The notes under the pieces were generated by a model. It was not told where the DNA came from and ran no database searches. It worked only from the letters and a program-made list of their open reading frames with translations. The translations under genes were made by a program, and so were the position numbers. From Candidatus Omnitrophota bacterium (GTDB lineage Bacteria; Omnitrophota; Gorgyraeia; Zapsychrales; Fredricksoniimonadaceae), in assembly GCA_015233145.1 (NCBI GenBank), contig JADFYI010000004.1, positions 4,821 to 68,820 of the forward strand: a stretch of DNA of 64,000 nucleotides. The letters are read 5' to 3'. Positions 15,896-63,989 of this stretch are shown here, in pieces. How positions within the stretch are numbered: the first letter of the stretch is position 1; each line of letters begins with the position of its first letter.

Positions 15896-15912
15896 TTTTT
15901 CTATTCCTTCAT

Positions 15913-17130: not shown

Positions 17131-17174
17131 GAGAACCTCCAAAGATTTGAATTTCAGGCACAAAATTTGTATGT

Positions 17175-24353: not shown

Positions 24354-24451
24354 CTTTGTATAAAGACAAAAATGCGCCACACAACATAGGCAATGGTGAC
24401 GGCAATATAATAGAAATTCAAGAACACTGACAGGAGTTTCTTATTGTCCAT
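24350..24451 (-). CDS. Unannotated 33-aa single-TM micro-ORF, or a frameshifted N-terminal helix of the downstream membrane protein
   Basis: Own translation: MDNKKLLSVFLNFYYIAVTIAYVVWRIFVFIQR. The ATG overlaps the epimerase stop (TAATG) and the TGA overlaps the next ATG (ATGA). GGGAG lies 8 nt upstream. It is too short for the ORF track. Confidence 0.35.
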   Translation of the reverse strand: MDNKKLLSVFLNFYYIAVTIAYVVWRIFVFIQR

Positions 24452-37267: not shown

Positions 37268-37287
37268 AATTCTTGTTCCCCATAAAC

Positions 37288-43592: not shown

Positions 43593-43601
43593 ACGGGCAG
43601 G

Positions 43602-44657: not shown

Positions 44658-44661
44658 TTCT

Positions 44662-45066
44662 TTATCTGCCCTTAAATCTTACTTTATCCAGTTCTCCGGC
44701 ATACGGCCCTTGCTTGACCTCAATGATCTCGCTTTCCTCAAGCATAGTAAATCCATGACCGCCATGAGCAAGAAGAATCACGTCTCCCGAGCACAATTCA
44801 CGGCTTTCAAGATAAACACGCGCTTGGTCATAGAAATCTACACGGACCCGGCCGCTCTTAATAAAAAGCACTTCCTGCGTCCATTCAATACTGCGAGGAA
44901 CTGCGTTGTGAACGTGAGGGTCAATTTCATAGCCCTTAGGGCGTTTCATATAGGCCAATTGCTGTGAGAAGTCTCCGGGTGTAAAAAAGTGGATGCCAGG
45001 TTCCGTAAATCGGACCGAAATAATAATGGCCAAAATCTGCTCTCCGCACATGATTTTTTCGATCAT
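44662..45066 (-). CDS. Cupin-fold protein (WbuC-like / sugar-modifying cupin)
   Basis: 134 aa. Cupin motif 1: GYEIDPHVHNAVPRSIEWTQE. Motif 2: GDVILLAHGGHGF. The position in a sugar cluster next to an aminotransferase is typical. Confidence 0.55.
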   Translation of the reverse strand: MIEKIMCGEQILAIIISVRFTEPGIHFFTPGDFSQQLAYMKRPKGYEIDPHVHNAVPRSIEWTQEVLFIKSGRVRVDFYDQARVYLESRELCSGDVILLAHGGHGFTMLEESEIIEVKQGPYAGELDKVRFKGR

Positions 45067-45083: not shown

Positions 45084-46280
45084 TTACGCCGCTTCCCAGG
45101 CCTTTTCCTCGTATCTTTTCTGGAGCGTGGACGTCCAGGTCTTATGCATCATCACAAACCTCCAACCGTCTTTTTCCGCCTCCTGCAGCCGCGCATCCAA
45201 GACATCCCCGTGGACGCTCTTGACATATTTTTGCGGATCTTTCTTATCAATAAAATGCCCAAAAAATGCCGGATGGGCCTTTTCAAGATCAGGCATGTAC
45301 TCGCTGTAAGTATGCTTGTTGGAATTCTTCCAGAATAATTTATCGTCAGGACCCCGGCCGTCAAAACCGCACAGAAAAACTGCCTTGGCCAGCGTACAGC
45401 CTAAAGGCAATAACAACAACGGCAACACATTTCCTAATTGCGGCAGGCTGAACTCCCGGGTTAGATCCACATGAACGCTCTGGTGCTGGCCCACCGGGAC
45501 CGGAATTAACTGGTCTAAAAACTGGCCGAATTCTCTTTTGACCAGGCCATGGAAACTCGCCGGATATAAGAACAACGTGTCTGATTCCTCCAACCTTAGA
45601 CGCAAGTCAGCACGAAAAGCCCTGGCAAAATTATTATGTCCAAAATGATAGATTGCGTCTCCGGCCACAATAAAATGGGGGGCTAAAAACTTCCAGAGCT
45701 CCTGATCGCGGACAATGGTATTGCACACCACTCGGTAACCTTCTGACCAGTTTCGCTCGATAGCCCGGCTCAAAGATGGTCCGGTACCAAACACATAACA
45801 CTTTCTATATTGTAGTTTTCTTAATTCCTCCACTCTTTGAACAAAACGCGCTTTAACAGACACAATATCCGGCTCTGCCTCTTTTCCATAAAACATATTA
45901 AGAGCCGCGTGCCATTCCCAGCCATCCGAAATTTTCCTCTCATAATCAACATCAAACATAGGCTGGCAACGACGGCGTAAAAACTTGTCCCAAAAGGGTA
46001 CGCCTGTATAAACATTATTAAGCAGTAAAACAGGGCCATTAAAAAAGGCCAGATAAAGAATATTTTTCACAGTGCGTTTCTGTATAACCCTGACACGGCT
46101 ATCTGGGATATAAAAATCCGCCCGTCTTAATATCTCATCAATCTTCTCCAGCGGAGAATCTATAGCCCAAAGGAGCGCTTTGTGCGGATCGTTCTTTAAA
46201 AAAATCCCGGCCAAGGCCTTGAGCAGAAAAAAGGCAGCCCGTTCAGCAGTAAAATAAATATTCTTTAAAACCTGTATCAT
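45084..46280 (-). CDS. DUF115 / MptE-like (Maf-type) protein, putative nonulosonic-acid transferase
   Basis: CYVFGTGPSLSRAIE...YRVVCNTIV...APHFIVAGDA matches the G.GPSL...D core I associate with the MptE-like/DUF115 family. Confidence 0.5.
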   Translation of the reverse strand: MIQVLKNIYFTAERAAFFLLKALAGIFLKNDPHKALLWAIDSPLEKIDEILRRADFYIPDSRVRVIQKRTVKNILYLAFFNGPVLLLNNVYTGVPFWDKFLRRRCQPMFDVDYERKISDGWEWHAALNMFYGKEAEPDIVSVKARFVQRVEELRKLQYRKCYVFGTGPSLSRAIERNWSEGYRVVCNTIVRDQELWKFLAPHFIVAGDAIYHFGHNNFARAFRADLRLRLEESDTLFLYPASFHGLVKREFGQFLDQLIPVPVGQHQSVHVDLTREFSLPQLGNVLPLLLLPLGCTLAKAVFLCGFDGRGPDDKLFWKNSNKHTYSEYMPDLEKAHPAFFGHFIDKKDPQKYVKSVHGDVLDARLQEAEKDGWRFVMMHKTWTSTLQKRYEEKAWEAA

Positions 46281-47029
46281 TCCGTACTCAATCTGATGGT
46301 TGCACCACCGTCAACCACCAAAGATTGCCCCGTTATAAAAGAAGACCCCGCTGAATCTGCCAAAAAGAAAATCGCCTGGGCAATCTCATCTGGCCTGGCC
46401 ACCCTGCCCAACACAGTCTTATTCGCTAATTTTTGCATAAGCGCATCCACTTGGCATTCTGAAAAATGCCCGCGTGTCAATCCTTCGCGAAGCATGGGGG
46501 TATCAACAGCTCCTGGCAAAATGCTATTAACCCTAATTTTGTCCGGAGCCCACTCAACAGCGAGTGCCCGCGTTAAGGCTGAAAGGCCCCCTTTAGCTGC
46601 CGCATAAGCCGCGATATTAATGGAAGTTGCAACGGCGTGGACCGAAGAAATATTCACAATGCTTCCGCCAGAGGCTTTCAGAAAAAAATGCGCTTCTTTA
46701 GAAAAAAGAAATGCCGCGCGCAAATTAACATTTAAAACTTTGTCCCAATCATCGAGCGCCATGGTCAGCGCAGGGCCGCAACTCTGGACCGCGGCGTTAT
46801 TAATCAAAGCATCTAGCCGGCCATAGACCTTAGAAGCTCTTGCAATCGCAGATTTAATTTGTTCCGGGTCGCTGCAATCGGCCTGGATAAAGATATCACC
46901 TTCAGATAATTTGGCACCCGGCCTGACATCAACACCCGCAACCGCCCATCCTCGTTCTGAAAAAAGCCTTGCGGCGGCCTGGCCAATCCCACCGGAAATC
47001 CCTGTCATTAAAACAACGCGTTTCATCAC
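46277..47029 (-). CDS. Short-chain dehydrogenase/reductase (classical SDR)
   Basis: VLMTGISGGIGQAAA (TGxxxGxG), NNAA, S...YAAAK (YxxxK). Confidence 0.85.
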   Translation of the reverse strand: MMKRVVLMTGISGGIGQAAARLFSERGWAVAGVDVRPGAKLSEGDIFIQADCSDPEQIKSAIARASKVYGRLDALINNAAVQSCGPALTMALDDWDKVLNVNLRAAFLFSKEAHFFLKASGGSIVNISSVHAVATSINIAAYAAAKGGLSALTRALAVEWAPDKIRVNSILPGAVDTPMLREGLTRGHFSECQVDALMQKLANKTVLGRVARPDEIAQAIFFLADSAGSSFITGQSLVVDGGATIRLSTE

Positions 47030-47985
47030 TTGTTCTCCTTGGCTGATTGATTCAAGTCTCGTACAAGATTGTCGATCGCCAACTGATTAACTTTTAACAC
47101 CGCTTCTTTCGTATTGGAACTGTTATGCGTTCCTAAAATAACGTGTTCAAACTGACTTAAAGGATGGCCCAACGGCAATGGCTCTTCCTCAAACACATCT
47201 AAAGCCGCACGCTCAACACGCCGCGCTTCGAGTGCGGCCAGGAGCGCTTTCTGGTCTATGAGTGCGCCTCTGGCCACATTAATAATCCAGACACCCTTCT
47301 TCATTTTGGCAAAAGCCTCTGCATTGAGAAGATGCCGATTTTCCCGGGTAAGATTGCAAGCCAGAACAATGCAGTCAGCCCGTTTCAAAAGATCATCAAG
47401 TTTCAGCTGTTCAAGGCCAATCTCCTCACAAACGTCTTTGCCAATCGGGCGAAGGTCGTAGCCCACCAAGTTCATGCCAACCGCAAGAAACCTACGCGCA
47501 ACAGCCTGTCCGATGCCACCGACGCCAATAATCCCGGCTGTTTTCCCGCGGAGTGAAACTCCTGGAATCTTAAGCCATTCTCCCCGGCGCACAGCCGCAT
47601 CCATTTTATGCAACTGGCGCGCCAAAAGGAGCAAATAACCCAGGGCCACATCCGCAACTTCATCATTAAAGACACCCGGAGTATTGGAAACACTTATCCC
47701 AAGTTTTTTGGCAGCCTCCCGATCTATCGCATCCACCCCGACTCCCCACTTAGCCAAAACACGCAACTTCCCACGCCGTCCGGTCTCCAGAACTTTGGCG
47801 GTAAAGGGATCATCACCGGCAATAACACCATCAAAATCAGAAACCATGGCACAGAGTTCTTGTTCTGTTAGCTGTTGAAGAACCTTCGGAGCCACAACGT
47901 CAAGGCCCTCCAGACGAAAACGCGCCTGACACTCCTTGAGTGTCAATAGCATTGGCGGACATGTGACCAAAATACGCCATTTCAT
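47026..47985 (-). CDS. D-isomer-specific 2-hydroxyacid dehydrogenase (PGDH-like)
   Basis: GKTAGIIGVGGIGQAVARRF (GxGxxG), NVARGALID, ILGTHNSSNT (catalytic His region). Confidence 0.85.
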   Translation of the reverse strand: MKWRILVTCPPMLLTLKECQARFRLEGLDVVAPKVLQQLTEQELCAMVSDFDGVIAGDDPFTAKVLETGRRGKLRVLAKWGVGVDAIDREAAKKLGISVSNTPGVFNDEVADVALGYLLLLARQLHKMDAAVRRGEWLKIPGVSLRGKTAGIIGVGGIGQAVARRFLAVGMNLVGYDLRPIGKDVCEEIGLEQLKLDDLLKRADCIVLACNLTRENRHLLNAEAFAKMKKGVWIINVARGALIDQKALLAALEARRVERAALDVFEEEPLPLGHPLSQFEHVILGTHNSSNTKEAVLKVNQLAIDNLVRDLNQSAKENK

Positions 47986-47988
47986 AAC

Positions 47989-48657
47989 TCAAGCCTTCCC
48001 TTCACGCCTTAGGTATAGCAATTCTGCGATTTTAAAATCGACCTCTTCATCAATATCCCACGCCTCATCCCTTGGAATTTCCAGCATAAGCGGCTTATAC
48101 CCAATGCGATTCTTTCTCTCTCTCAATATCTTTTCTGTAAAAATATAAAGATTAGAATTCTCCTCATATACTGGCGCAAGATCCTGTGTGCGCAAAAGCA
48201 CCTTTGGATCATGGTTCATGGCCCGGCCTTGAGCATCATACAAACGCGTCTGCAAACGAGTGACCCCAAAAAGGCTGTCATGCTGAGGGCTCTGTTCCAA
48301 CCATTTAATCCCCCGAGCAATAGTCTCAGACTTTAAAAGCGGATTAGTGCTGTGAGTCTGCAAGTAAACATCAGCCTTAACCTGTAAAACTGTATTTAAA
48401 AGGACATCATTCATCGGCGTCATCCCTGAACGAAGATGCTCAGGACGCAGCAGTGTTAAAACCGATGGAAAAGATTTCTTAGCATCATCAATAATAAAAG
48501 GGCTGTCGGTATCAATACACACTTGCGAAATAGCAGAACAATTCAAAAGGCTCTGAATAATATAATGGTAAAGAGGCTTCCCAGCGAACAAACGATAGTT
48601 CTTGCCAACCACGCGTTCACTGGAATGCCGCATCGGGACAAAGGCTGCTATTTTCAT
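47989..48657 (-). CDS. Acylneuraminate-type cytidylyltransferase (CMP-nonulosonic acid synthetase family, NeuA/PseF/LegF-like)
   Basis: MKIAAFVPMRHSSERVVGKNYRLFAGKPLYHYIIQSLL. Start trimmed to ATG 48657, which overlaps the upstream stop (ATGA). Confidence 0.8.
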   Translation of the reverse strand: MKIAAFVPMRHSSERVVGKNYRLFAGKPLYHYIIQSLLNCSAISQVCIDTDSPFIIDDAKKSFPSVLTLLRPEHLRSGMTPMNDVLLNTVLQVKADVYLQTHSTNPLLKSETIARGIKWLEQSPQHDSLFGVTRLQTRLYDAQGRAMNHDPKVLLRTQDLAPVYEENSNLYIFTEKILRERKNRIGYKPLMLEIPRDEAWDIDEEVDFKIAELLYLRREGKA

Positions 48658-49304
48658 GCTTTCTCCTTCAAAATGGCCCTGGCCGGCGCGCCATCCACCC
48701 CGGCAAGCTTTACGGGCAGACAAATGAGTTCATATTCCCCAGGTAGCACATGCCCCAAATTCAATCCTTCCAGGGCAATCACGCCTGCGCCCAAAAGTAT
48801 CTGATGCGTTTGGGGCCCGTCAGAAAAACGCTGGACTGACAAATAATCAACACCGACCAGTCGTATCTCATGATCCACAATCCATTGGGCGCCATCCGCC
48901 GTAAGCGCGACAAAACTACGGTCAAAAACATGAGACAATTTCTGCCATGCGCCAGAATTCCTGGTCTTAAAAAGCACCCGTTTCGTTTGAGGCGGTATCT
49001 TAAGCCCATCAAGAAGATGCGCATCAATCTTATCAACGTCCCCCAAATCAAAAACCCTGACAGTGCCGATAAGATCATCTACGGCCAGCTGATCCGCGCC
49101 CTTTCCTTCCCGTACAAAATGAAACGGGGCATCCACATGCGTGCCCGTGTGGACATTCATACGAATCGTTGTATCATTCGAGGCGTCGCCGCGTGCCATG
49201 CTCGCGGTCGCCTCAAACTCCACACCGGGAACCCCCGGCCAGTGCACCATTCCCGGTGACACAGGCAAAGAAATGTCGATATATCTTTCTTTAATTTTTG
49301 TCAT
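48654..49304 (-). CDS. Cyclase-family protein (kynurenine-formamidase-like metal hydrolase)
   Basis: VHTGTHVDAPFHF (HxGTHxDxPxH motif). The length (~216 aa) is typical of the family. Confidence 0.75.
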   Translation of the reverse strand: MTKIKERYIDISLPVSPGMVHWPGVPGVEFEATASMARGDASNDTTIRMNVHTGTHVDAPFHFVREGKGADQLAVDDLIGTVRVFDLGDVDKIDAHLLDGLKIPPQTKRVLFKTRNSGAWQKLSHVFDRSFVALTADGAQWIVDHEIRLVGVDYLSVQRFSDGPQTHQILLGAGVIALEGLNLGHVLPGEYELICLPVKLAGVDGAPARAILKEKA

Positions 49305-50268: not shown

Positions 50269-51162
50269 TTATTTGCCCAATTTACTACCCATCTCCAAAA
50301 ATTTTTTCTTTAAACCTCTTGTCCATGGAAAACGATTCTTAATCTTCTCTTTAAAAGAATCCTCCCCCACGCATTTGTGGCATATCGGAAGCTTTTGATT
50401 ATGTTTTCCCGTATATAACAACCTGCGGACAGGCTCTGACTTGATCCACATTTCTTGCAACGTGCCATCAGAAAGCGAACCATATTTATTCTTTCCAAAT
50501 ATATCGCGGCAGCACATGACCAATTGGCCATAGCAATCGATTGTCATGATGTTGTAATAAGCACATTGTTTTCTGTAAGGGGCATACTCGCCATCGACCT
50601 CACCGGCATAGTTTAAAGGAGTCCAGCCAGGCCTGAGCACTGTTACACTATTAATATATTCCGGATATTTTTCTAACAACGCTGCCAGCTCTGGTTCATT
50701 CTTGAGAACCTTGGTGTGCTGGGTAATTCGCATGGTATGAAACGCATTATCTAATAGATTTTTTAACAATTCCGGCGTCAAGAGAGTTCCATTGGTTGTT
50801 AAGTGCATTTTAGCTAAAGGCAACTTTTTTCGGGCATATGAAAAAAGCGATAAACAGCGCTCATCAGTAAGAGGCTCACATAAAAAAGCAGTCCCCAGAA
50901 ACCCTTGAAACCCCCAATCATGTAATTCATCAATAATCCTTTTAAAGTCTTCCTCAGACATGCGCTGATGTCTTCTGGCATATTTTGAATTCGGGCAATA
51001 CGGGCACTTCAAATTGCAGGTTGAAATAGTTTCTAACTCAACCACGGCTGGGCAAGCATTCTTTTTCTTTTCCCAGGAAATTTCTTGCGCCCAGTCGCCC
51101 TTCTCAACTTTTTTTTGTGAATTCTCTTCTGAATAAACATAATCCTTTAACGACAAACTCAT
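50269..51162 (-). CDS. Radical SAM enzyme with Cys-rich SPASM/twitch-like C-terminus
   Basis: CNLKCPYC (CxxxCxxC). The C-terminus reads QCAYYNIMTIDCYGQLVMCCRD...LPICHKC. ATG 51162 has AAGGAG 7 nt upstream (the track start is TTG at 51165). Confidence 0.8.
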   Translation of the reverse strand: MSLSLKDYVYSEENSQKKVEKGDWAQEISWEKKKNACPAVVELETISTCNLKCPYCPNSKYARRHQRMSEEDFKRIIDELHDWGFQGFLGTAFLCEPLTDERCLSLFSYARKKLPLAKMHLTTNGTLLTPELLKNLLDNAFHTMRITQHTKVLKNEPELAALLEKYPEYINSVTVLRPGWTPLNYAGEVDGEYAPYRKQCAYYNIMTIDCYGQLVMCCRDIFGKNKYGSLSDGTLQEMWIKSEPVRRLLYTGKHNQKLPICHKCVGEDSFKEKIKNRFPWTRGLKKKFLEMGSKLGK

Positions 51163-51228
51163 CAAAACGCTCCTTTTACAAAGACTACTAATAAAAAAAT
51201 AACTATATTTATCAATCTCCTACTTCAT

Positions 51229-54829: not shown

Positions 54830-55912
54830 CTATCCTTTTTTAACAACCGGCAGAAAACCCTTCCAAATATCGCCGGTATAAATAGCATTCACTGCCGCCT
54901 CACAGCTTTGCCAGCATCCCGGGCATTGGGCTACCCAGGCCCTCTGTTTCTTAACCTCCAGAGAATGCCAAATTTCTTTTAAACTGTATTGTTTTAAGTT
55001 GCCAACAACAGTGCCGTTATAAAGGCACACCGGGACATCGCCGTTCGGTAAAATACGAATATGACTGTTTAATGCCACACAAGGAGGGTTCGGGCTCGCT
55101 TGTCCGCACACAATTCTGTTATACATGCCCTGCAAATGGTAACGGTCAATGACCCGTTCCGGTAAATCGGATATCCCCTTCGATTCCTCCAGCATGCTGC
55201 TGATAAAATCCTTGAGTCCTTTCTTTGAAAACTCGCCAAAGGGCTTAACAGAGCCATTGGGATCAGTAAATTTCTTATCCGAATAAAGGCTGTTCTGCGG
55301 TTGTAACGCAATCGTGGGATAAATAGGCACATTGTCCCTGCTAAGAATCTGCTTTAACTGCCCATACGCTTCAATATCCGACTCATTGACAATCGCCTGG
55401 TTAACGCCAACGTGAAATTTGTAAACCTTGCGCAGACGTACCAGCTCCTTGATGGAGCGCATGGCTTTCTCATAAGCACCCGGGACACCCCGAATATCAT
55501 CATGGCGCTTACCAACATGATCAATAGATATCTTGATATGAATTTTCTTGGGATGCGTTAACGCTTCCATGACCTGAACAATTCTCTCTGTCAACATGCC
55601 ATTAGATGTAATATGAATCATACTTGGACGACCAACGTCATCAATCGCATTAATGACATCAAGCAGGTCTTTCCTCAAGAAAGGCTCTCCACCAGTAATC
55701 CGTAACACATCCGGATTCTTGATCTGACAAAAAATTTTGCTAATTTCATCTAAATTAAGTTCGTCATTAGCCTCTGCACGCTTGCGCCACACATCACAAA
55801 AAACACAGCGTCCATTACAGCGCCATGTAACCAAATATGTGACAAACATCGGCATCCGGGGTAACCCCAAGTGCGTAAGTCCTATCGATTTAATGATACG
55901 CGCAATATTCAT
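54830..55912 (-). CDS. Radical SAM enzyme with SPASM/twitch-like C-terminus
   Basis: CNGRCVFC (CxxxCxxC), ITGGEPFL. The C-terminus reads PPCVALNSHIRILPNGDVPVCLYN...AQCPGCWQSCEA. ATGA overlap with the upstream deacetylase gene. Confidence 0.85.
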   Translation of the reverse strand: MNIARIIKSIGLTHLGLPRMPMFVTYLVTWRCNGRCVFCDVWRKRAEANDELNLDEISKIFCQIKNPDVLRITGGEPFLRKDLLDVINAIDDVGRPSMIHITSNGMLTERIVQVMEALTHPKKIHIKISIDHVGKRHDDIRGVPGAYEKAMRSIKELVRLRKVYKFHVGVNQAIVNESDIEAYGQLKQILSRDNVPIYPTIALQPQNSLYSDKKFTDPNGSVKPFGEFSKKGLKDFISSMLEESKGISDLPERVIDRYHLQGMYNRIVCGQASPNPPCVALNSHIRILPNGDVPVCLYNGTVVGNLKQYSLKEIWHSLEVKKQRAWVAQCPGCWQSCEAAVNAIYTGDIWKGFLPVVKKG

Positions 55913-56769
55913 AACTCTTTTCGACCATTAGAATTGCCTGGCCGTCCTTCGCTGCTAAGCATCAAATACAAATCTGTCATGGTAATAAATTCATACCCCT
56001 TGGCTCGAAGCAAGGCCATAAACTTCCTGAAATATCTGATTCCTGCATGTTTATTATTACCCCAGGCTACCCGTAACTCCCAAGGCAGACGGCTAAAGCT
56101 TTTTTCACTCACAAGATAATCATGCAAATGAGAGTCAAAAATCAAAATATCCGGTAAACCAAAAACCGAATAAAGCGCCTGGTTAAAAGGAAACCCCAAG
56201 AGCTTTAAATAACTCAACGAAATCGTAAGCCGCATTCCCCGCACCGCGGCCAAAGGAAGTTCCATAATTCCGTTATCATACAAAAAAGGTGTCGGTGGCA
56301 TGTTTAAGTTGTTAAATTTTCCAGGCCGATAAGAGGGAAAAACACTGGAACTAAATTTAAAACCGTGCCGTTTCATTAAATCAATATCGCCCTCACGCAA
56401 AACACCCTGCGGCGCACGATAGCCCAAAGCCCGGTGGCCAAAAAACTTTTCAAACGTCTCTGCAGTATCTGCGATTTCCTTTTTGCTTACAGAGTCCCGA
56501 GTATTGTGCGTATGCGAATGCCCATGATAATCTTGTGCCAGCATCCTGACACAATCAAAACTTTTAGGATATTTAAGTAAAAGCCCTGTTGTTATAAAAG
56601 CCGATACCGGGGTTTTCTCTCGAACAAATACGTCTTTGAGTTCCTCCAAACCTTTACTGTCATCTAAAATATTAAAGTTGCCCACCCTATCGCCATAATC
56701 CTCTTCAAAATCCAGAGTTATGCAGACAAACTTTTTTCCTTCTGGTATTTTCTTTGCGATCTTGCTCAT
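55909..56769 (-). CDS. Polysaccharide deacetylase-like protein (CE4-like)
   Basis: CITLDFEEDYG (in place of the TFDD motif), HGHSHTH (His motif), GYRAPQG. Confidence 0.6.
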   Translation of the reverse strand: MSKIAKKIPEGKKFVCITLDFEEDYGDRVGNFNILDDSKGLEELKDVFVREKTPVSAFITTGLLLKYPKSFDCVRMLAQDYHGHSHTHNTRDSVSKKEIADTAETFEKFFGHRALGYRAPQGVLREGDIDLMKRHGFKFSSSVFPSYRPGKFNNLNMPPTPFLYDNGIMELPLAAVRGMRLTISLSYLKLLGFPFNQALYSVFGLPDILIFDSHLHDYLVSEKSFSRLPWELRVAWGNNKHAGIRYFRKFMALLRAKGYEFITMTDLYLMLSSEGRPGNSNGRKEL

Positions 56770-56787
56770 ACGAGCCGATCTCCCATT

Positions 56788-57654
56788 TTATTCATGGATC
56801 TCTCGCCTGAGCGCAGAAATCTGGTCACATAAAAGCCCGAACATAAAAACCATAAGTGACGCCAAACAAAAAATCACAGTGGTCTTCCCAATACTTTGCC
56901 AGCCTGATAGCGCCATATTCACAACAGCGCTTACTAACCCAAGCCAAAATAAAAAATTCGCTACTGTTAAGAAAACTTTTAATGGCTCAAAAAGCACCGT
57001 CAGCCGCAGCATCAACAGCATAGTTTGTGGCCCGTGTTTCATTTGGCGGACAGTGCTCTTGCCTTTTCTTTTCACAACCGTAATCGGTATCCATGCGATA
57101 TTGCGCAAACTTTTTAAGAAAGCGAACGTCATGGTGGTGGACATGGAAAACCCGTCAGGCATTAAATGAAAATATTTCATAAGGACTTCTTTTTTAACAA
57201 CCCTGAGGCCTGAATTAAAGTCTGGGATCTTTTCATCTGCTAAAAAGTTAGCAAAGTGATACAAAATCGTTTTTCCCAGCCAGCGCCTTTTGGAAACATG
57301 GGACGTTTGCGTACGCACACCCACGACCATGTCATGCTCAGGAGTTGTTATCTCAATAAGCCTGGCAATATCAGAGGCTGAATGCTGACCATCCCCATCA
57401 CAAAAAACAACATATGGTGTCGTAACCAAGCGAACGCCGGTCTTTAAACTCGCCCCATACCCGCTATTCTTATGATGTTTAACAACCCTCGCTCCGGCAT
57501 TTTCTGCGATCTCGGCGCTTTGATCTTCTGAGCCATCATCAACAACTATAATTTCTGTCTTAGGGAACTGGCCACGGAGAGCCCTGATGCACGATTCAAT
57601 GGACTCAGCTTCATTATAAACAGGAATAACTATCGTAATATTATCTTGTTTCAT
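56788..57654 (-). CDS. Glycosyltransferase family 2 with C-terminal TM helices (GtrB/ArnC-type polyprenyl-phosphate glycosyltransferase)
   Basis: ITIVIPVYNEAESI, IVVDDGSEDQS, FCDGDGQH. Two C-terminal TM helices end in GLLCDQISALRRE, as in GtrB/ArnC. Confidence 0.85.
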   Translation of the reverse strand: MKQDNITIVIPVYNEAESIESCIRALRGQFPKTEIIVVDDGSEDQSAEIAENAGARVVKHHKNSGYGASLKTGVRLVTTPYVVFCDGDGQHSASDIARLIEITTPEHDMVVGVRTQTSHVSKRRWLGKTILYHFANFLADEKIPDFNSGLRVVKKEVLMKYFHLMPDGFSMSTTMTFAFLKSLRNIAWIPITVVKRKGKSTVRQMKHGPQTMLLMLRLTVLFEPLKVFLTVANFLFWLGLVSAVVNMALSGWQSIGKTTVIFCLASLMVFMFGLLCDQISALRREIHE

Positions 57655-57665
57655 AAACGGTTGTC

Positions 57666-59189
57666 CTATTTTCCTTGGTCGCTGCTAGAACGTTTTTTCC
57701 TGCGAGTCAGCCCATACAGAACAAAAGGCAAAGCATATAAAATAAAGACTTTTAACGTCGGCCAAAAGTCATAAATAGGGTAATTGTTAACAATTGTTGC
57801 CGGCATTTTGTTTTTAAAACCCAACAAAGTTGCCAGTAAATAAATAAAATAAATAACTCTCTTAAAAAGAACAAAAAAAAGTTCTTTGGGATGCCCAAAA
57901 GCCGTCTTCCATACCTCGAGCTGGAACGTATGGTTAGTCCATCCCATATTTAAATCATGCTGAAGCGCCAAATTATCTCCGCTTTCAAAAAACAACATCG
58001 ATAGCACGGGAAAGAGGGCAATCAGCATCCAAAAGAGTCGGATCTTTTGACCATATTTCTCGTCGCTTTTCTTAAAGATATATGCCAAGGGAAAAACTAA
58101 AAGCGGCATAATGGACGCCATAATGAGCCGATAGCCATAAAAGCATCCCTGCGAGCCCCACACAATCATGATATAAAAAGTGACGCACATGGGTATGAGG
58201 GATATAAAAATCCTTACACGGCCGGTAAAATCTTTTAAAAAAAGCCCAGCGATGCCTAAAAAAATAAAAGGAGCCGTATAGAGCAACCCCCAATCCACGC
58301 CGAATAAAATGTGCCAGGCTCTTTTTAGATAAAAGGTCAGTGGTCTTAACTGCAATAAAATGTTTCCCACAGAGGAATATCCCTGATAGTGAAGGTAATG
58401 ATCTGGCAGAATCTTAAACAGGAAGACAACCGCCCCGGCAGCGCCGCAGACCACAGCCATTGTCCGCCAAAAGCGGGCTGTCTTAAATTCAGAAAAATTC
58501 CGGCAAAATAATGCAAAAGGCCATATCAAGGCCGCAAAGAAATTGTTATAGCGGACCAGGTATATAAGCGCCACCAGTACCCCTGTGCCAACAGCCGGCA
58601 AAACTCCCTTTAGCTCAAAGGAATCCCTTTTTAGATTCCTTAAGAGCATGAAAATCATCAGGCTTTGAAGAAAAAACTCAAACACGTGGGAAAAGATCGG
58701 CCGGCGATACACATAAAGAGGAAGCCCCTGACACACGATCATATATATGACCGCCATTGTGGCGTAACGCTTCTCAATAAACCAGCGCAGGGCCCTGTAT
58801 AACAGGAAACACGCAAACCAGAAATACACGCTCGCCGCAAAAACAAAACCAAACTGGCTCCAGCTGCCGGACACGTTTTTATAAGTCCGTGACTCTACAA
58901 TATCAGACCCCGTCAGACGGTCGAACCAGGAAAAAGCAAAAACAAAAGGCGAAGCCATAATTCCTGCGCCAATGGCGCAAGTGGGGCTACGCAATCCATA
59001 ACAAATCTCTTTCTTATATGAAGGGAATTGACCAAAAGCAAGCGACGAGGCATGAACAAAATATTCCTGATCATCGTTGCCAAAACACTCTGAATTTTCT
59101 GAATTATACCACATGCCGTTGTCTTGCATAAAAGATATTCTGAGCAGCAGAAAAGCAAAAACAAATATGGCAATAGAGATAGCCTTCAT
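57666..59189 (-). CDS. Polytopic membrane protein, GT-C-like (likely partner of the adjacent GtrB/ArnC-type GT2)
   Basis: 507 aa with more than 11 TM segments. The first loop carries GNDDQEYFVHA (acidic DD..Y motif). A strong AGAGGAGG Shine-Dalgarno sequence lies 7 nt upstream. Confidence 0.6.
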   Translation of the reverse strand: MKAISIAIFVFAFLLLRISFMQDNGMWYNSENSECFGNDDQEYFVHASSLAFGQFPSYKKEICYGLRSPTCAIGAGIMASPFVFAFSWFDRLTGSDIVESRTYKNVSGSWSQFGFVFAASVYFWFACFLLYRALRWFIEKRYATMAVIYMIVCQGLPLYVYRRPIFSHVFEFFLQSLMIFMLLRNLKRDSFELKGVLPAVGTGVLVALIYLVRYNNFFAALIWPFALFCRNFSEFKTARFWRTMAVVCGAAGAVVFLFKILPDHYLHYQGYSSVGNILLQLRPLTFYLKRAWHILFGVDWGLLYTAPFIFLGIAGLFLKDFTGRVRIFISLIPMCVTFYIMIVWGSQGCFYGYRLIMASIMPLLVFPLAYIFKKSDEKYGQKIRLFWMLIALFPVLSMLFFESGDNLALQHDLNMGWTNHTFQLEVWKTAFGHPKELFFVLFKRVIYFIYLLATLLGFKNKMPATIVNNYPIYDFWPTLKVFILYALPFVLYGLTRRKKRSSSDQGK

Positions 59190-59251: not shown

Positions 59252-60655
59252 CTACGCATTATTTTTCTCTATTTTTGGTAATCTATAATATAAAGTCTTA
59301 ACGAGTTCTTTTTCTGATAGACCAACACCCAATACCTCATTACACCTCTTTAAGCCTTCTAATACACAATTTTGAAGCTGCGCATCTGGCATTGATGTCA
59401 TATTTAATCGCAAATCCTGACGATCTCCCATCAACAAGAGATATTCCTCCTCATCTTTAATAAACCCGTGCTGACGCGCATAATCATAGATGCTCGATCC
59501 GGGTTGAGGCAAAAGATACCCTGCGGATGGATAAATGCGGTTTTCAAGGCAACAATCAAATGTTTTCTTTATCGTCTGCGGCGTTTCCTGAGGATATCCG
59601 ATCACAAGGCTCGTAGAGACAGGGATCCCTGCCTTATGAAAAAGCTTTGTTTGGCGCGAAAAATGTGCTACGAGCACTTTCTTATTCATATCATGCAAAA
59701 TTCCTTCATCGGCAGACTCTAGCGAATACCCCATACTCTGACAGCCCGACGCTTTCATTTTGGCCATAATCTCAAGGTCTTCCTCTCGATCAAAAAGATT
59801 CGACCTGCAAGTGCCGCTCCAATAAAAATGCAACTTTTCATCTAAGATTGCATTTACCAATTCAAGCGTTTGTTTCTTTGAGAAAAATGTTAATTCATCC
59901 AATAAATAAATATGATTTAAAGAATACTTTTCAATCATAGCTCTCATCTCTGCCACTAAAGATGCTGCGGACCGATAACGATAAGGAACCCCTTTAAAAA
60001 CATGGTAACAAAAACCACAATTAGCAATACAACCGCGAGCGGTATTAACTGGCAGCCCACGCACCTGTTCTCTGGGAATAGGAAGAGGATCCGAGGGATA
60101 AACTTTGGAATACTCTATGTATTTATCAACATTAAATATTGAAAAATCAATCGGAGGGATAATGGAAATATCCTCAATCAGCGCCCTCGGTTCCGTTGTT
60201 ACAACTTCTCCGCCATTTAAAAAACAAATACCCTTAACTTTATCCACAGGCCTCTTGGCAGAAATCTCATGCAAAAGCTCAACGACAGTCTGCTCACCTT
60301 CACCGATAACAGCGTAATCAACTGCCGTCCTGGTCAACAAAATATGCGGAATAGATGTCGCTACGGAATTACCCACAATAATCTTTGTCTGGGGATGTGC
60401 CGATTTAATAATTGCGGCATATTCTTTAATGGTTTTATACCCCGTCACGATACATCCCATACAAACAGCATCATACCGATTGCTTTTCAGAAAACTTTCT
60501 ACATAAGCTGGTGAATAACGTTCAACATCAATGTCTAAGAGATCAAAAGAAAACCCTGCATTCTTAATGGCTGTCGCCACGTAACCCAGTCCAATGGGAA
60601 ATAATCTTAACGGCGATTGGGGGCGAAGCGAGACGTTAATAACTAATATTTTCAT
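59252..60655 (-). CDS. B12-binding-domain radical SAM enzyme (class B, methylase-like)
   Basis: The N-terminal ~140 aa form a flavodoxin-like cobalamin-binding-type domain (MKILVINVS...FPIGLGYVATAIKNAG...DAVCMGCIVT). This is followed by ARGCIANCGFC (CxxxCxxC). Confidence 0.85.
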   Translation of the reverse strand: MKILVINVSLRPQSPLRLFPIGLGYVATAIKNAGFSFDLLDIDVERYSPAYVESFLKSNRYDAVCMGCIVTGYKTIKEYAAIIKSAHPQTKIIVGNSVATSIPHILLTRTAVDYAVIGEGEQTVVELLHEISAKRPVDKVKGICFLNGGEVVTTEPRALIEDISIIPPIDFSIFNVDKYIEYSKVYPSDPLPIPREQVRGLPVNTARGCIANCGFCYHVFKGVPYRYRSAASLVAEMRAMIEKYSLNHIYLLDELTFFSKKQTLELVNAILDEKLHFYWSGTCRSNLFDREEDLEIMAKMKASGCQSMGYSLESADEGILHDMNKKVLVAHFSRQTKLFHKAGIPVSTSLVIGYPQETPQTIKKTFDCCLENRIYPSAGYLLPQPGSSIYDYARQHGFIKDEEEYLLLMGDRQDLRLNMTSMPDAQLQNCVLEGLKRCNEVLGVGLSEKELVKTLYYRLPKIEKNNA

Positions 60656-60680
60656 TTCCGCACTCCTTACGACTTCATCT

Positions 60681-61415
60681 TTAGCAAGTTCTCATATTTA
60701 TGTTCACAAACGCTTCTGCCAATTTAAGACCCGACTGCTGTCCGCGTTGAGAGGCAAGTGTCTCAATAAATTCTACTGAACGAGGATGCGGCGACTTCCT
60801 CGCCTCACTCTCATAAACCTTCAGTGCCTTGAGCTTGGCCGGCAAACTCTTTGCAATGTCAACAAAATGATCCGGAATAAAATCAGCTCCTCGGCAAGGC
60901 ACGGAAAGGCATGTGCTTTCCGGAATCTCCATATGAAATACCGCAGTGTTCTTTTTACCCCAAGCCGGACGAAAAGCTGTAAGCACTGCCTGACATACCA
61001 ACTGATGGTCCTTATTAAAATCATTCCAAAAATGCGTATAAACTAAAGAAGGCTTAACCTTTTGTTTGACCATCTCCACATGTTTAACAACATCGAGAAA
61101 GGGATAACTATCCAGCCGCTGGTCGGCAAGGTTCATAAAAATAATATCCTTGGCGGCGACGCCTAAACTTGCACCGGCTTTTAACGCTTCTTTACGGCGG
61201 GATAAAATTGCCTTGTCATGGCGTGCCAACTCCTGAACCCGAGAAATTTTCTCCTGTGGATTGTACGCACGTGATGTGACTCCATCTGCCATAATCAGAA
61301 TTGTAACCCGATCACCATTCCTACGATGAGAGGCAATGGCACCACCACACCCCAGCACCTCATCATCAGGATGCGCCACCACAACCAATACTTTCTTTTT
61401 CTTTACCGGCGACAT
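60681..61415 (-). CDS. PIG-L/LmbE-family N-acetyl-sugar deacetylase
   Basis: KVLVVVAHPDDEVLGCGG (AHPDDE zinc motif), with DH and H.D motifs downstream. Confidence 0.85.
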   Translation of the reverse strand: MSPVKKKKVLVVVAHPDDEVLGCGGAIASHRRNGDRVTILIMADGVTSRAYNPQEKISRVQELARHDKAILSRRKEALKAGASLGVAAKDIIFMNLADQRLDSYPFLDVVKHVEMVKQKVKPSLVYTHFWNDFNKDHQLVCQAVLTAFRPAWGKKNTAVFHMEIPESTCLSVPCRGADFIPDHFVDIAKSLPAKLKALKVYESEARKSPHPRSVEFIETLASQRGQQSGLKLAEAFVNINMRTC

Positions 61416-62080
61416 ATGATTTCAGCCTCTGCTATAACCTTCTTACCTGCCAAACGAGCCTTGGAAAAATTAACTACGATGTGCTTAAAAGCCAAGAAGG
61501 CCCTGGGATAACCGGGGGCATCGAGCATACGGATATGATCATAAACCTTCTTTTCGCTCTTTAAGTTACCGATAGCTCCTTGTTGCGGTTTGCGGCGTTT
61601 GAAAACGACAACTTTCCCCTGCTGAGGCTTGGGAGAAACCCCGCCTTTAAGAATATCGGGAATCATTTTCTTAAAAACGATTTCTGACGCTCTAACCAAA
61701 ATATCCTCGGCTGTACCTGAAAGGCGCAGCATGGCCTTCCTGTAAACAGGGCCGGCATCAATCCCCTCCACCACTTTGATCGCAGATATTTTTGTCCAAT
61801 ACTGCCCCCGGACTATAAGATTCTGCAAAGGAGACCCTCCCCGTCCATACGGGAGATCCGTCATATGAAAAACGACACACTCATAACTCCTGAATATTTC
61901 CGGAGAGATATACCAGGACCAATGCGGAAAAAAAATGTAACGTGGCTGGTGTTTCCGCACAAAATCCGGCGTCAATCTTTTGGGGTCAGTCACCAGGACC
62001 ACGCCCCGCCGATGAGCCTTTAGCCACCTGGCATTCTTGATATTCCACGGATGTATTGTCGCAATAATTATTTTATCCAT
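61403..62080 (-). CDS. Formyltransferase-family protein, divergent (catalytic Asn position is Val)
   Basis: VVFHMTDLPYGRGGSPLQNLIVRG aligns with the N.H.SLLP..RG..P motif of FMT/PurN-type enzymes, but reads V-F-H instead of N-x-H. Start trimmed to ATG 62080 (the track start is TTG). Confidence 0.65.
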   Translation of the reverse strand: MDKIIIATIHPWNIKNARWLKAHRRGVVLVTDPKRLTPDFVRKHQPRYIFFPHWSWYISPEIFRSYECVVFHMTDLPYGRGGSPLQNLIVRGQYWTKISAIKVVEGIDAGPVYRKAMLRLSGTAEDILVRASEIVFKKMIPDILKGGVSPKPQQGKVVVFKRRKPQQGAIGNLKSEKKVYDHIRMLDAPGYPRAFLAFKHIVVNFSKARLAGKKVIAEAEIICRR

Positions 62081-62100
62081 CTTGCTTTCACCGTTATTGA

Positions 62101-62940
62101 TCAAAACCCTACCGGCTCAAAATCATCAAGTCTCACCGCGCATTGCCCGCAACGCACATACGTCAAATCCCCCCTTAAGAAAGGAATGCCAACGGTTTTA
62201 TTTTTATAAATTTTTTCATCAAAAATCTCTGTCACGCGCCATAAAAAATATTTCCGTCCGTTATTCAGGAAAAAAGCGCCCGGATAAGGCCTGGTTTGAG
62301 CGCGCACCCAATTAAAAACCTTACGAGAGCTCCAGCGCCAATCAATAAGGCCTTCTTGAGGTGTACGCTGGCAGCAATAAGTTCTCTTATTTAAATCCTG
62401 AGCCGTCCTCTTAAGATCACCTTGAACAAACATTAAAAAAACTTTTCTCAAAACAACAGGATAACGGCGGCTCATTTTCTTGATCAACGTCCCCCCGGTA
62501 TCGGTGTTTTCAATCAACATCTTTTCCTGATAGACAACAGGCCCGCAGTCGCAAGCCTCCACAATTTCATGAACCGTGATCCCCGTTTCAACCTCATCAT
62601 TGATGATCACCCACGTTACAGGTGTACGCCCCATATATTTTGGCAAAAGCGAATCATGAATATTGAGCGCAAGCTTCCTGGCCTTTTTAAAGATTACTGG
62701 AGGTAAAACAAAAAGATAATTCACTGACATAAGCACGTCAAAAGCCGGAAGCTTCCAAGACGCGGCGTTAATGCGCGGATTACCTTTAAATGCTGGAATA
62801 CCTAACTGTCCCGCCAGCTTAATAATCTCGCCAGAACGGCTGTCCACCAAGACCGCAACAATGCGGATACCCTTTATCTTGGCCAAAGTTTTAAAACCAA
62901 TAAGCCCCAGCCAGCCGGAACAACACGCCAACACTCGCAT
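62101..62940 (-). CDS. Formyltransferase (Fmt/ArnA-N/WbkC-like sugar N-formyltransferase candidate) with C-terminal domain
   Basis: LNIHDSLLPKYMGRTPVTWVIINDE has an intact N-x-H...SLLP..RG motif, with Asp further downstream. The C-terminal ~90 aa resemble the Fmt C-terminal domain. Confidence 0.8.
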   Translation of the reverse strand: MRVLACCSGWLGLIGFKTLAKIKGIRIVAVLVDSRSGEIIKLAGQLGIPAFKGNPRINAASWKLPAFDVLMSVNYLFVLPPVIFKKARKLALNIHDSLLPKYMGRTPVTWVIINDEVETGITVHEIVEACDCGPVVYQEKMLIENTDTGGTLIKKMSRRYPVVLRKVFLMFVQGDLKRTAQDLNKRTYCCQRTPQEGLIDWRWSSRKVFNWVRAQTRPYPGAFFLNNGRKYFLWRVTEIFDEKIYKNKTVGIPFLRGDLTYVRCGQCAVRLDDFEPVGF

Positions 62941-62942
62941 CT

Positions 62943-63989
62943 TTATCTCCTAATATCTGCTGAAGTCAGCGGGGTTCCCCGCTTCAATGCCCTTACAGCC
63001 CGTGCGCCTAATATTTTGGATAATTCCTGAGGGGAAAGACCGTTTCCTGGACGAATAACCCTAATATTATCCCGCGTAAAACTCTCACCCTGTTTTATGT
63101 CTTTAACAACAAATATTGAACGCCTGAACTTGACACTGCCTTTTTCATCAATGGTCTGCCCATAAAAAGGCTGGCCTATGGCCTTCTCGACCGTACGGAT
63201 ATCTTCGACCATCTTTTTAAACTCCGTTGGAGTCACGGAAAACGCCGCATCCGGTGAAAGATCCTCGCGGGAAAGCGTAAAATGCTTCTCAATAATTTTG
63301 GCACCCAAAGCTACAGCAGCAACAGCAACAGCTGAGGATAACGTATGATCTGATAAACCCGCAACAACTTGAAACTCCTTTTGCAAAGAAGGAATGCTCA
63401 TAAGATTCATTTCTTCCGGACTGGCGGGATAAGCGCTAACGCATTTTAAAAGCGCCACATCAGGAGCGCCGCTCCTGCGCAAAATCTCCACAGCATGAAA
63501 GATTTCTTTTTCTGAAGCCATTCCCGTTGATAAAATTACCGGCTTCCTTTTGGAGGCCGTATAAGCCAAAAGCTCATCGTCCACAAGCTCAAAAGAAGCA
63601 ATCTTGTAAACAGGGACATCCAGCTGTTCTAAAAAATCCACAGCCGTCTCATCAAATGGCGTTGAAAAGAAATCCAGCCCCAATTTTCCTGCTTCATTTT
63701 GCAACGGCTGGTGCCATTCCCACGGAGTATAGGCCTGCTGATAAAGTTGATATAAACTTTTCCCTCCCCATAAAGGATGGCTCCCTATTTGAAAATACTC
63801 ATTATCACAATCCATTGTCATGGTATCGGGCGTATACGTCTGCAACTTAATCGCGTCTGCCCCGGCATCCTTAGCAGCTCGAATTAACTTCAACGCCTTT
63901 TCAAAAGACTGTCCGTGATTAGCTGACATTTCTGCGATAATATAACAAGGACAACCTTCCCCAATTATTCGATTCTTAAGTTTAATCAT
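62943..63989 (-). CDS. pseI: Nonulosonic acid synthase of the NeuB family, most similar in motif content to pseudaminic acid synthase
   Basis: IIAEMSANHGQS (the SANH variant I associate with PseI rather than the NeuB pattern IGINH), AIKLQTYTPD, TPWEWH, YKIASFE, LKCVSAYPASPEEMNL, GLSDHT, IIEKHFTL. A C-terminal SAF domain is present (FVVKDIKQGESFTRDNIRVIRPG). Confidence 0.8.
   Translation of the reverse strand: MIKLKNRIIGEGCPCYIIAEMSANHGQSFEKALKLIRAAKDAGADAIKLQTYTPDTMTMDCDNEYFQIGSHPLWGGKSLYQLYQQAYTPWEWHQPLQNEAGKLGLDFFSTPFDETAVDFLEQLDVPVYKIASFELVDDELLAYTASKRKPVILSTGMASEKEIFHAVEILRRSGAPDVALLKCVSAYPASPEEMNLMSIPSLQKEFQVVAGLSDHTLSSAVAVAAVALGAKIIEKHFTLSREDLSPDAAFSVTPTEFKKMVEDIRTVEKAIGQPFYGQTIDEKGSVKFRRSIFVVKDIKQGESFTRDNIRVIRPGNGLSPQELSKILGARAVRALKRGTPLTSADIRR

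Follow-up and report, generated by a model that had tools for sequence, protein, structure and literature searches.

Five co-directional genes at one end of a 64,000-nucleotide stretch of DNA from a metagenome-assembled genome of an uncultivated Candidatus Omnitrophota bacterium (GenBank assembly GCA_015233145.1, contig JADFYI010000004.1; hereafter the window, numbered 1-64000) look to us like the downstream part of a pseudaminic acid (Pse) biosynthesis operon that carries three separable tailoring additions and heads a surface-glycan locus. We hold this reading, taken whole, with moderate confidence. Each of its four accessory families, namely an ArnA-like formyltransferase (Fmt1), a second formyltransferase-fold protein (FmtL), a PIG-L deacetylase and a B12-binding radical S-adenosylmethionine (SAM) protein, recurs beside nonulosonic acid (NulO) synthase genes in many unrelated genomes. 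These enzymes probably point to decorations of bacterial sialic-acid-like sugars that are yet to be described. In transcription order, the genes are as follows.

62943-63989, minus strand: PseI, pseudaminic acid synthase, 348 amino acids (aa), with NeuB and SAF domains
62101-62940, minus strand: Fmt1, ArnA-type sugar N-formyltransferase homologue, 279 aa, with N- and C-terminal formyltransferase domains (locus tag HQL16_03195)
61403-62104, minus strand: FmtL, formyltransferase-fold protein of the PDB 1ZGH/PF21553 family, 233 aa (NCBI calls a 225-aa form)
60681-61415, minus strand: PIG-L/LmbE-family de-N-acetylase, 244 aa, its 5' end overlapping the 3' end of FmtL by 13 nucleotides (nt)
59252-60655, minus strand: B12-binding-domain radical SAM protein of class B architecture, 467 aa

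The preliminary description of this DNA, made from its letters alone, was right about five consecutive, tightly packed open reading frames (ORFs) on the minus strand; the spacings between them are 2, -4, -13 and 25 nt, an operon-like arrangement. The PseI ORF may start as far upstream as 63998, and the sequence upstream of PseI lies beyond the window. A glycan locus of no less than 47 kb, all of it on one strand from about 17.2 kb to past 64 kb, has the block at its upstream end. Also encoded in this locus are a phosphoglycosyl transferase of the initiating type, WecG, proteins resembling Wzy, three radical SAM/SPASM proteins, methyltransferases and many glycosyltransferases.

Domain calls here and below come from Pfam and NCBIfam profile scores, which for these five proteins lie well above chance level, and equivalog cutoffs are the curated ones of NCBIfam. 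By these scores the window synthase is of the PseI type and not a sialic-acid NeuB, as had been proposed. It reaches 479.9 bits on the PseI equivalog TIGR03586 (cutoff 340.25) and fails the sister model TIGR03569 NeuB_NnaB at 311.7 bits (cutoff 399.65), and it joins a NeuB domain (PF03102, 4.4e-91, residues 35-273) to a C-terminal SAF domain (PF08666, 7e-14, residues 289-347). Because of this PseI-type score and the conserved NulO neighbourhoods described below, neither a sialic-acid NeuB synthase nor an unrelated neighbourhood of the accessory genes, the two outcomes held to count against the preliminary description, applies here.

The canonical route to CMP-Pse5Ac7Ac in Campylobacter jejuni and Helicobacter pylori runs through PseB, PseC, PseH, PseG, PseI and PseF. 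The window resembles it in its PseI equivalog, and related loci hold the full set in the usual operon style. It differs in having PseI only, in having four genes (those for Fmt1, FmtL, PIG-L and the radical SAM protein) without a counterpart in the canonical pathway and in placing a formyltransferase homologue where PseH usually lies. A scan of the window ORFs with NCBIfam (10-64 kb) found no clear PseB, PseH or PseG, and the ORFs without annotation at 43602-44657, 45084-46280 and 24451-25506 likewise gave none of the three. The only Pse-like genes inside the window, both below cutoff, are one DegT aminotransferase (PseC/LegC-like) and one CTP_transf_3 cytidylyltransferase (weakly PseF-like).

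The pairing of FmtL with PIG-L ties both genes to Pse loci. FmtL has more than 8000 relatives in the database at about 50% identity or above, from Clostridium, Halanaerobium, Acetivibrio, Elusimicrobia, Thermotogae, Planctomycetota, Patescibacteria and other taxa; a scan of species-representative genomes found relatives in at least 588 of them, the best match there being 58% identical. We examined 81 FmtL loci (80 fetched loci plus one flagellar locus of the C. sporogenes type), counting neighbours within 10 kb. PIG-L lies near FmtL in 78 of the 81 and PseI in 76, the commonest orders being PseI-FmtL-PIGL (52 loci) and FmtL-PIGL-PseI (13 loci). The 51 loci that extend 5 kb or more to each side (fully flanked) contain PseB in 47 cases, PseC in 42, PseH in 34, PseG in 37, PseI in 50, PIG-L in 49 and PseF in 42. 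Clustering of the ORFs gives as typical neighbours PseB, PseC and PseF, a GNAT of about 156 aa (PseH-type) between PseI and FmtL, and PseG right after PIG-L; a PseG representative from these loci passes TIGR03590 (162.3 versus 153.55). Because the full PseB/C/H/G/I/F set is usual in FmtL loci, FmtL and PIG-L are additions to a complete Pse pathway, not replacements for parts of it. The PseI-FmtL-PIG-L module is seen in Clostridium sporogenes flagellar loci, Lachnospiraceae, Planctomycetota and Patescibacteria. A gene combination first taken to be unfamiliar is, in this part, very common and normally stands alongside PseB/C/H/G/F. Formyltransferase and deacetylase genes go unmentioned in a 2026 survey of the flagellar Pse loci of Clostridium.

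On sequence similarity, the fold of FmtL is not in doubt. It matches PDB 1ZGH at 3e-68 (1e-111 with the family profile) and Formyl_trans_C_2 (PF21553) at 3e-17, its N-terminal part being matched only weakly by ArnA and Fmt models. The family has the invariant motifs FFPHWSW and CVVFHMTDLPxGRGGSPLQN, and His80, Asp116 and the whole SLLP-like loop are unchanged. The Asn-His-Asp triad of formyltransferases is incomplete: FmtL carries Val in place of the Asn, and each of the 17 family members aligned has Val or Ile there. Because this catalytic Asn is absent, the donor and chemistry of FmtL are uncertain. Mutagenesis of GAR transformylase is reported to have suggested that the Asn is less critical than the Asp. 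The two formyltransferase homologues that had been noted are both present, although they are not equivalent: Fmt1 has the canonical triad and FmtL does not. A search of the PDB with the FmtL profile returned no PseJ at E up to 0.001, and we reject FmtL as a member of the PseJ family. The structure 1ZGH, from Clostridium thermocellum, which we take to be the basis of PF21553, is named a methionyl-tRNA formyltransferase. FmtL clearly belongs to this family, but the name misfits its context (PseI and PIG-L in 76-78 of 81 loci). We found no described function for 1ZGH, and the sole paper we found that mentions it is unrelated. Thousands of proteins so named are components of Pse loci, a useful re-annotation even if alkylation by the radical SAM enzyme should prove wrong.

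The PIG-L protein itself is well defined at the level of the domain (PF02585, 8e-26, 91.6 bits, cutoff 28.2). It has the metal-binding and catalytic motifs AHPDDE (within VVAHPDDEVLGCGG) and, later, NKDHQ with its DH, and among PDB entries it comes closest to a diacetylchitobiose deacetylase from an archaeon (7e-12). Among the characterized subfamilies BshB, MshB and Mca, none is reached, the top score being 58.4 bits on BshB1 (cutoff 182.5). What such an enzyme could do in a Pse pathway is suggested by the origin of the sugar: the N5 acetyl of Pse derives from UDP-GlcNAc (PMC5109656, PMC11040635), and because it is inherited in this way it can be changed only by hydrolysis and re-acylation. 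Deacetylation followed by re-formylation, as first suggested for this block, remains a reasonable reading, and the same logic has been proposed for a NulO cluster of Ca. Kuenenia stuttgartiensis, in which CMP-NulOs with one formyl group and one free amine were linked by mass spectrometry to a cluster with a deacetylase and a formyltransferase (bioRxiv 10.64898/2026.04.20.719630). The two systems are alike in this logic, and they differ in that the Kuenenia cluster is described as legionaminic-type and no radical SAM enzyme is mentioned.

It is less clear which of the two formyltransferase homologues would act on the product of PIG-L. FmtL may not be the acyltransferase in question; the true pair would then be PIG-L and Fmt1, and FmtL would have some other job, as a hydrolase, as a partner for binding or scaffolding, or as a transferase for another donor. 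The substituted Asn points this way, as does the window PIG-L, which is 54-56% identical to the PIG-L proteins beside Fmt1 homologues in two loci (L165 and L166, with overlapping genes) and 35-43% identical to those of ordinary FmtL loci. Moreover, L166 has PIG-L and Fmt1 without FmtL. Set against this, FmtL is the sole formyltransferase-fold gene in 70 of 79 FmtL loci and still adjoins PIG-L, for which a transferase role is the simplest reason, and its His80, Asp116 and SLLP-like loop are invariant. We consider this alternative unlikely, if worth keeping in mind, and continue to favor FmtL as the partner of PIG-L.

Fmt1 is better conserved at its active site. It matches Formyl_trans_N (PF00551, 2e-19, 70.6 bits, cutoff 26.1) and Formyl_trans_C (PF02911, 2e-11), and its motifs LNIHDSLLP and CDCGP align to N102, H104 and D140 of ArnA, so that the Asn-His-Asp triad is intact, as it is throughout the Fmt1 clade. 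Its closest PDB relative is the formyltransferase domain of ArnA (1e-32). From these features we infer that Fmt1 is an ArnA-like sugar N-formyltransferase that is catalytically intact and depends on N10-formyl-tetrahydrofolate. The clade of homologues is small (50-58% identity), and all four close homologues with readable context lie in NulO loci, arranged as follows (rSAM, radical SAM gene; MT, methyltransferase).

L165: NeuB-FmtL-PIGL-Fmt1-PseB
L166: PIGL-Fmt1, overlapping, downstream of PseG-NeuB and without FmtL
L167: PseB-PseC-MT-PseF-x-NeuB-Fmt1
P0242 contig: NeuB-Fmt1-B12 rSAM

In the window, Fmt1 stands between PseI and FmtL, and the same slot is filled by a PseH-type GNAT in 44 related loci. 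PseH and a second formyltransferase-fold gene are mostly exclusive among the fully flanked FmtL loci: 33 have PseH only, 4 the second formyltransferase-fold gene only, 1 has both and 13 have neither, so that four of the five loci with such a gene are without PseH. Because Fmt1 occupies the slot where many relatives carry PseH, N7 is the nitrogen that it would most likely formylate.

Formylation of Pse has a precedent in PseJ, which makes Pse5Ac7Fo, and the enzymes of N-modification have been called "largely unknown" (PMC11040635). 5-N-Formyl-legionaminic acid is also documented (PMC6137143). With N-formyl NulOs and a Pse formyltransferase on record, the novelty at first attributed to an N-formyl NulO falls away. 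The PseJ route (PDB 6CI2 and 6CI4) also uses a formyltransferase-fold enzyme in a Pse locus, the proposal being that formate, in place of acetate, is added to the product of PseC. Fmt1 differs from it in that the match to PseJ is 2e-9 over about 100 residues (62-161 only), compared with 1e-32 for ArnA, and in an extra C-terminal domain, PseJ being a single domain of about 190-220 aa. We therefore reject Fmt1 as a member of the PseJ family; by analogy it is plausibly a functional counterpart of PseJ that is not homologous to it.

A third, short formyltransferase-fold type (Fmt3; 211-224 aa, with the motif HNLVVHESxLP and Val at the catalytic Asn position) adjoins PseI in seven loci (L002, L012, L015, L017, L029, L031 and L066) and, in Pelosinus (L082, 11075-12811), is fused to the C terminus of PseG. 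It is not PseJ either, no PseJ being found among its PDB matches at E up to 0.001. To judge from these comparisons, PseJ, Fmt1, FmtL and Fmt3 represent separate formyltransferase-fold lineages. As a further observation on these loci, a gene for an AP_endonuc_2 protein (a xylose-isomerase-like TIM barrel) lies directly upstream of the NulO synthase in L165 (6806-7576), in L167 (8205-8978), in the P0242 contig and in L003, L007 and L054. Among the 51 fully flanked loci, 37 have PseG only, 3 have AP_endonuc_2 only and none has both; because the two never co-occur there, AP_endonuc_2 may substitute for PseG.

The fifth gene is the one that most changes the interest of the block. Its product has a B12-binding domain (PF02310, 4e-19, 69.1 bits), a Radical_SAM domain (PF04055, 7e-16, 59.2 bits) and a CX3CX2C motif (C209, C213 and C216) that is invariant across a tight family (59-83% identity among members, mean column identity 74%). 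To study its context we assembled 83 loci (three look-ups and 80 further metagenome loci), 51 of which span at least 8 kb. The three look-ups are given here.

Pelosinus (L082): PseB-PseC-PseF-rSAM-MT-PseG~Fmt-MT-PIGL-NeuB
Syntrophales genome: NeuB-rSAM, adjacent
Metagenome contig: rSAM-rSAM-x-NeuB-Epimerase_2

Of the 83 loci, 41 have a NeuB-family synthase; among the 51 larger ones, 36 have it no more than 10 kb from the radical SAM gene, and in about 17 loci it is directly upstream (gap of at most 190 nt). The next commonest neighbours are PseC, PseG, PseF, a class-III aminotransferase, PseB, an aldo-keto reductase, WbqC, PIG-L and GNAT. The accompanying synthases are of the PseI type and of other NeuB types. 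Five further loci (L102, L106, L119, L141 and L148) share the order seen in the window, with PIG-L immediately preceding the radical SAM gene. A link between this family and NulO biosynthesis is, as a prediction from gene neighbourhoods, well supported. No paper that we found ties radical SAM enzymes to Pse, legionaminic acid (Leg) or NulO genes. The preliminary suggestion that the accessory genes serve a NulO pathway is thus borne out for all four: both formyltransferase homologues, PIG-L and the radical SAM protein are linked to NulO synthases across many unrelated genomes.

The chemistry of this enzyme is harder to assign. It reaches no NCBIfam equivalog, the top scores being those on HpnJ (140.8 bits, cutoff 577.6) and BchE (134.2), and it has no equivalog-level match to a characterized methyltransferase (PhpK, HpnR, TsrM, GenK-type or others). 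Among solved structures, AprD4 (PDB 6FD2, 7e-19 with the family profile) ranks ahead of CysS and TokK, with OxsB and TsrM also found; all of these matches are weak. Because methylases and non-methylases score alike, profile and PDB similarity cannot assign the reaction. Most characterized B12-domain radical SAM enzymes are methyltransferases, and GenK and Fom3 are class B C-methyltransferases that act on sugars or lipid-linked sugars. Cobalamin-dependent C-methylation is, in our view, the single most likely chemistry, with a little less than an even chance of being right. The "C-methyl" of the preliminary description was overstated; it was a guess from the class, whose nearest relatives include non-methylases and all score far under the family cutoffs.

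A non-methylase could instead carry out an HpnJ-like rearrangement or ring contraction, an AprD4-like dehydration or deoxygenation, or an OxsB-like contraction of a (deacetylated) amino sugar. Several observations are consistent with such a reaction. The top NCBIfam matches, HpnJ and BchE, are non-methylases, and the closest solved relative, AprD4, is a diol dehydratase of an aminoglycoside sugar. The PIG-L gene directly upstream, in the window as in the five loci named above, mirrors the order in which the deacetylase HpnK is followed by the radical SAM enzyme HpnJ (PMC12583986). Finally, genes for aldo-keto reductases, short-chain dehydrogenases/reductases (SDR) and GFO/IDH/MocA proteins recur in radical SAM loci, as a dehydratase and reductase pair would need. 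On the other side, all of these similarities are far under cutoff and generic to the class, whose characterized members are mostly methyltransferases; there is no PIG-L in reach in 69 of the 83 loci; and the two or three paralogues found in several loci are reminiscent of iterative methylases. We regard a non-methylase as a real though minority possibility, behind C-methylation.

Such paralogues, two or three B12-radical SAM genes within 10 kb, occur in 19 of the 83 loci (L083, L084, L094, L114, L115, L151, L153 and others), which hints at iterative or multiple radical modifications. Compared with the class B enzymes HpnJ, AprD4, GenK and Fom3, which act on sugars or lipid-linked sugars, the window protein has the same N-terminal B12-binding domain and CX3CX2C core, and its deacetylase pairing resembles HpnK and HpnJ; it differs in belonging to a distinct, tightly conserved clade that neighbours NulO genes. 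Separately, three radical SAM/SPASM genes lie apart from one another on the minus strand of the polysaccharide locus (54830-55912, 50269-51165 and 36224-37297), and distant relatives (about 25% identity) of the gene at 50269-51165 recur in about 10 B12-radical SAM/NulO loci.

If these parts belong to one pathway, it could proceed as follows. First, Fmt1 would formylate the 4-amino group of UDP-4-amino-4,6-dideoxy-beta-L-AltNAc, the future N7, in analogy to the PseJ route to Pse5Ac7Fo. Second, PIG-L and FmtL would act as an "N5-editing" pair, in which PIG-L removes the N5 acetyl and FmtL re-acylates the freed amine, presumably with formate; alternatively, Fmt1 would be the partner of PIG-L. Third, the B12-radical SAM enzyme would use radical chemistry to alter the nonulosonate, the hexose from which it is made or an N-acyl group. 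Finally, a cytidylyltransferase would activate the product, a formylated Pse derivative that may be further alkylated, for use by the glycosyltransferases encoded downstream.

A number of points weigh against this scheme. We infer every substrate and regiochemistry in it, and for this genome the presence of PseB, PseC, PseG and PseF and the absence of PseH are expectations from the relatives, not observations. FmtL lacks the triad Asn, and the window FmtL does not reach the Pfam Formyl_trans_N model. The order of Fmt1 and PIG-L varies among loci, hence the argument from the PseH slot is positional only, and L165 carries a GNAT as well as Fmt1. Finally, about 30% of the radical SAM loci of at least 8 kb have no NeuB-family gene in reach, and the family and structure matches of the radical SAM protein, to judge from scores far under cutoff, mix methylases (CysS, TokK, TsrM and PhpK-type) with non-methylases (HpnJ, BchE, AprD4 and OxsB).

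Flagella, S-layers, capsules and lipopolysaccharide carry sugars of the Pse and Leg types, whose N-substituents decide charge, antigenicity and recognition by phages and the immune system. Against this background the interpretation first offered for the block is partly supported. The block is less singular than it seemed, since the FmtL/PIG-L module turns up very often and the chemistry of N-formylation is already known. It is more interesting in one respect: the B12-radical SAM family appears, from its distribution, to be a recurrent and undescribed companion of NulO synthases. We found no experimental tests of the four accessory enzymes in the literature. Three clonable candidates stand out. 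The first is the very common FmtL/PIG-L pair, which is genetically testable because it is found in culturable Clostridium, Halanaerobium and Lachnospiraceae. The second is the ArnA-like formyltransferase lineage distinct from PseJ. The third is the conserved B12-radical SAM family, which would add radical chemistry to NulO biosynthesis and of which we found no description in the literature.

Mass spectrometry of Magnetospirillum has revealed C10 "higher-carbon" CMP-ulosonic acids spaced by CH2, to which no genes are assigned (bioRxiv 10.64898/2026.04.20.719630). Alkylation of the sugar by the radical SAM enzyme, if it takes place, would explain these C10 ulosonic acids and give access to new sialic-acid analogues. 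The broadest form of this idea, which we think improbable as a whole, would make the radical SAM family NulO-dedicated cobalamin enzymes that alkylate the backbone or an N-acyl group, and so account for the Magnetospirillum acids, and would make FmtL/PIG-L a general route for replacing the N5 acetyl.

The genes that follow the block bear on two further alternatives.

57666-59189, minus strand: membrane protein of 507 aa with 11 transmembrane (TM) segments by TM-segment count and no Pfam match
56788-57654, minus strand: family 2 glycosyltransferase (GT2) with three C-terminal TM segments, polyprenyl-phosphate glycosyltransferase-like (AglJ/PpgS/ArnC-like architecture)
55909-56769, minus strand: weak homologue of NodB-type deacetylases (Polysacc_deac_1)

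This trio (55909-59189) resembles an Arn- or Gtr-like set for periplasmic glycan modification, and its membership in the NulO pathway is uncertain. One could imagine that Fmt1 serves such a modification of an amino sugar and not Pse. The ArnA formyltransferase domain is, after all, its top PDB and NCBIfam relative, the GT2 protein is built like ArnC and GtrB, with TM segments at its C terminus, and matches ArnC weakly, and the 507-aa protein would supply the membrane component. The likeness to the ArnA/ArnD system of 4-amino-arabinose lipid A thus extends to the fold, triad and C-terminal domain of Fmt1 and to the NodB-like and GT2 genes downstream. However, Fmt1 is wedged between PseI (2-nt gap) and FmtL (4-nt overlap); the four Fmt1 homologues with readable context are all beside NeuB or PIG-L, and their loci contain no homologues of the 11-TM, GT2 or NodB-like genes; the GT2 protein matches AglJ and PpgS better than ArnC; and Fmt1 lacks the ArnA dehydrogenase domain. 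The equivalog tests also failed, at 148 versus 777 bits for Fmt1 on ArnA and 55.9 versus 529 for the GT2 protein on ArnC. An Arn-like role for Fmt1 is very improbable in view of its context, and on homologue context and scores far under cutoff we reject it, keeping Fmt1 with the Pse pathway.

A subtler possibility is that the formyl group is transient. The ArnA product is deformylated by the NodB-family protein ArnD. By the same logic, the cap added in the Pse pathway could later be removed by the NodB-like protein (55909-56769) or by an arylformamidase-like protein (48654-49304), leaving a mature NulO that is a zwitterion with a free amine. ArnA is the closest characterized relative of Fmt1, the locus has both the weak Polysacc_deac_1 homologue and the protein that scores 141.8 bits on the arylformamidase model, and in L167 a Polysacc_deac_1 gene lies two genes after the Fmt1 homologue. 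The Kuenenia NulOs, with a free amine and formyl on the other nitrogen, are also compatible with it (SugarBase preprint, bioRxiv 10.64898/2026.04.20.719630). Yet both candidate deformylases are under curated cutoffs and several genes away from the block, neither has a detectable homologue in L165-L167, and stable N-formyl NulOs are well documented. We think removal of the formyl group rather improbable and expect it to be kept.

The arylformamidase-like gene is itself worth describing. It encodes a cyclase-family protein (48654-49304, minus strand; 141.8 bits against the cutoff of 223 on the arylformamidase model) and overlaps the CTP_transf_3 cytidylyltransferase gene by 70 nt; a D-2-hydroxyacid dehydrogenase and an SDR follow, and these genes (46277-49304, minus strand) may form a second block for CMP activation or acyl modification. 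A formamidase-like enzyme is a notable presence in a locus with two Fmt homologues. Farther downstream, a region at 42453-45066 (minus strand) holds the DegT aminotransferase, which scores 334.7 on the LegC family (cutoff 420) and 277.6 on PseC (cutoff 423.5), preceded in transcription order (43602-45066) by a 351-aa ORF without a family match and a 134-aa WbuC-like cupin; it may belong to a further amino-sugar pathway.

At a larger scale, the window has annotated genes on the minus strand only and a negative GC skew over its whole length. Stretches of low GC content (about 0.39-0.41, versus 0.44-0.49 elsewhere) at 28-36 kb and 50-54 kb within the glycan locus may reflect mosaic acquisition. 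The glycan locus borders on housekeeping genes at its downstream side, where it is adjoined by those for phosphoglycerate kinase and triose-phosphate isomerase (15134-17163, minus strand, 16-nt overlap); an Opp-type ABC transporter follows this pair at 9-14.7 kb.

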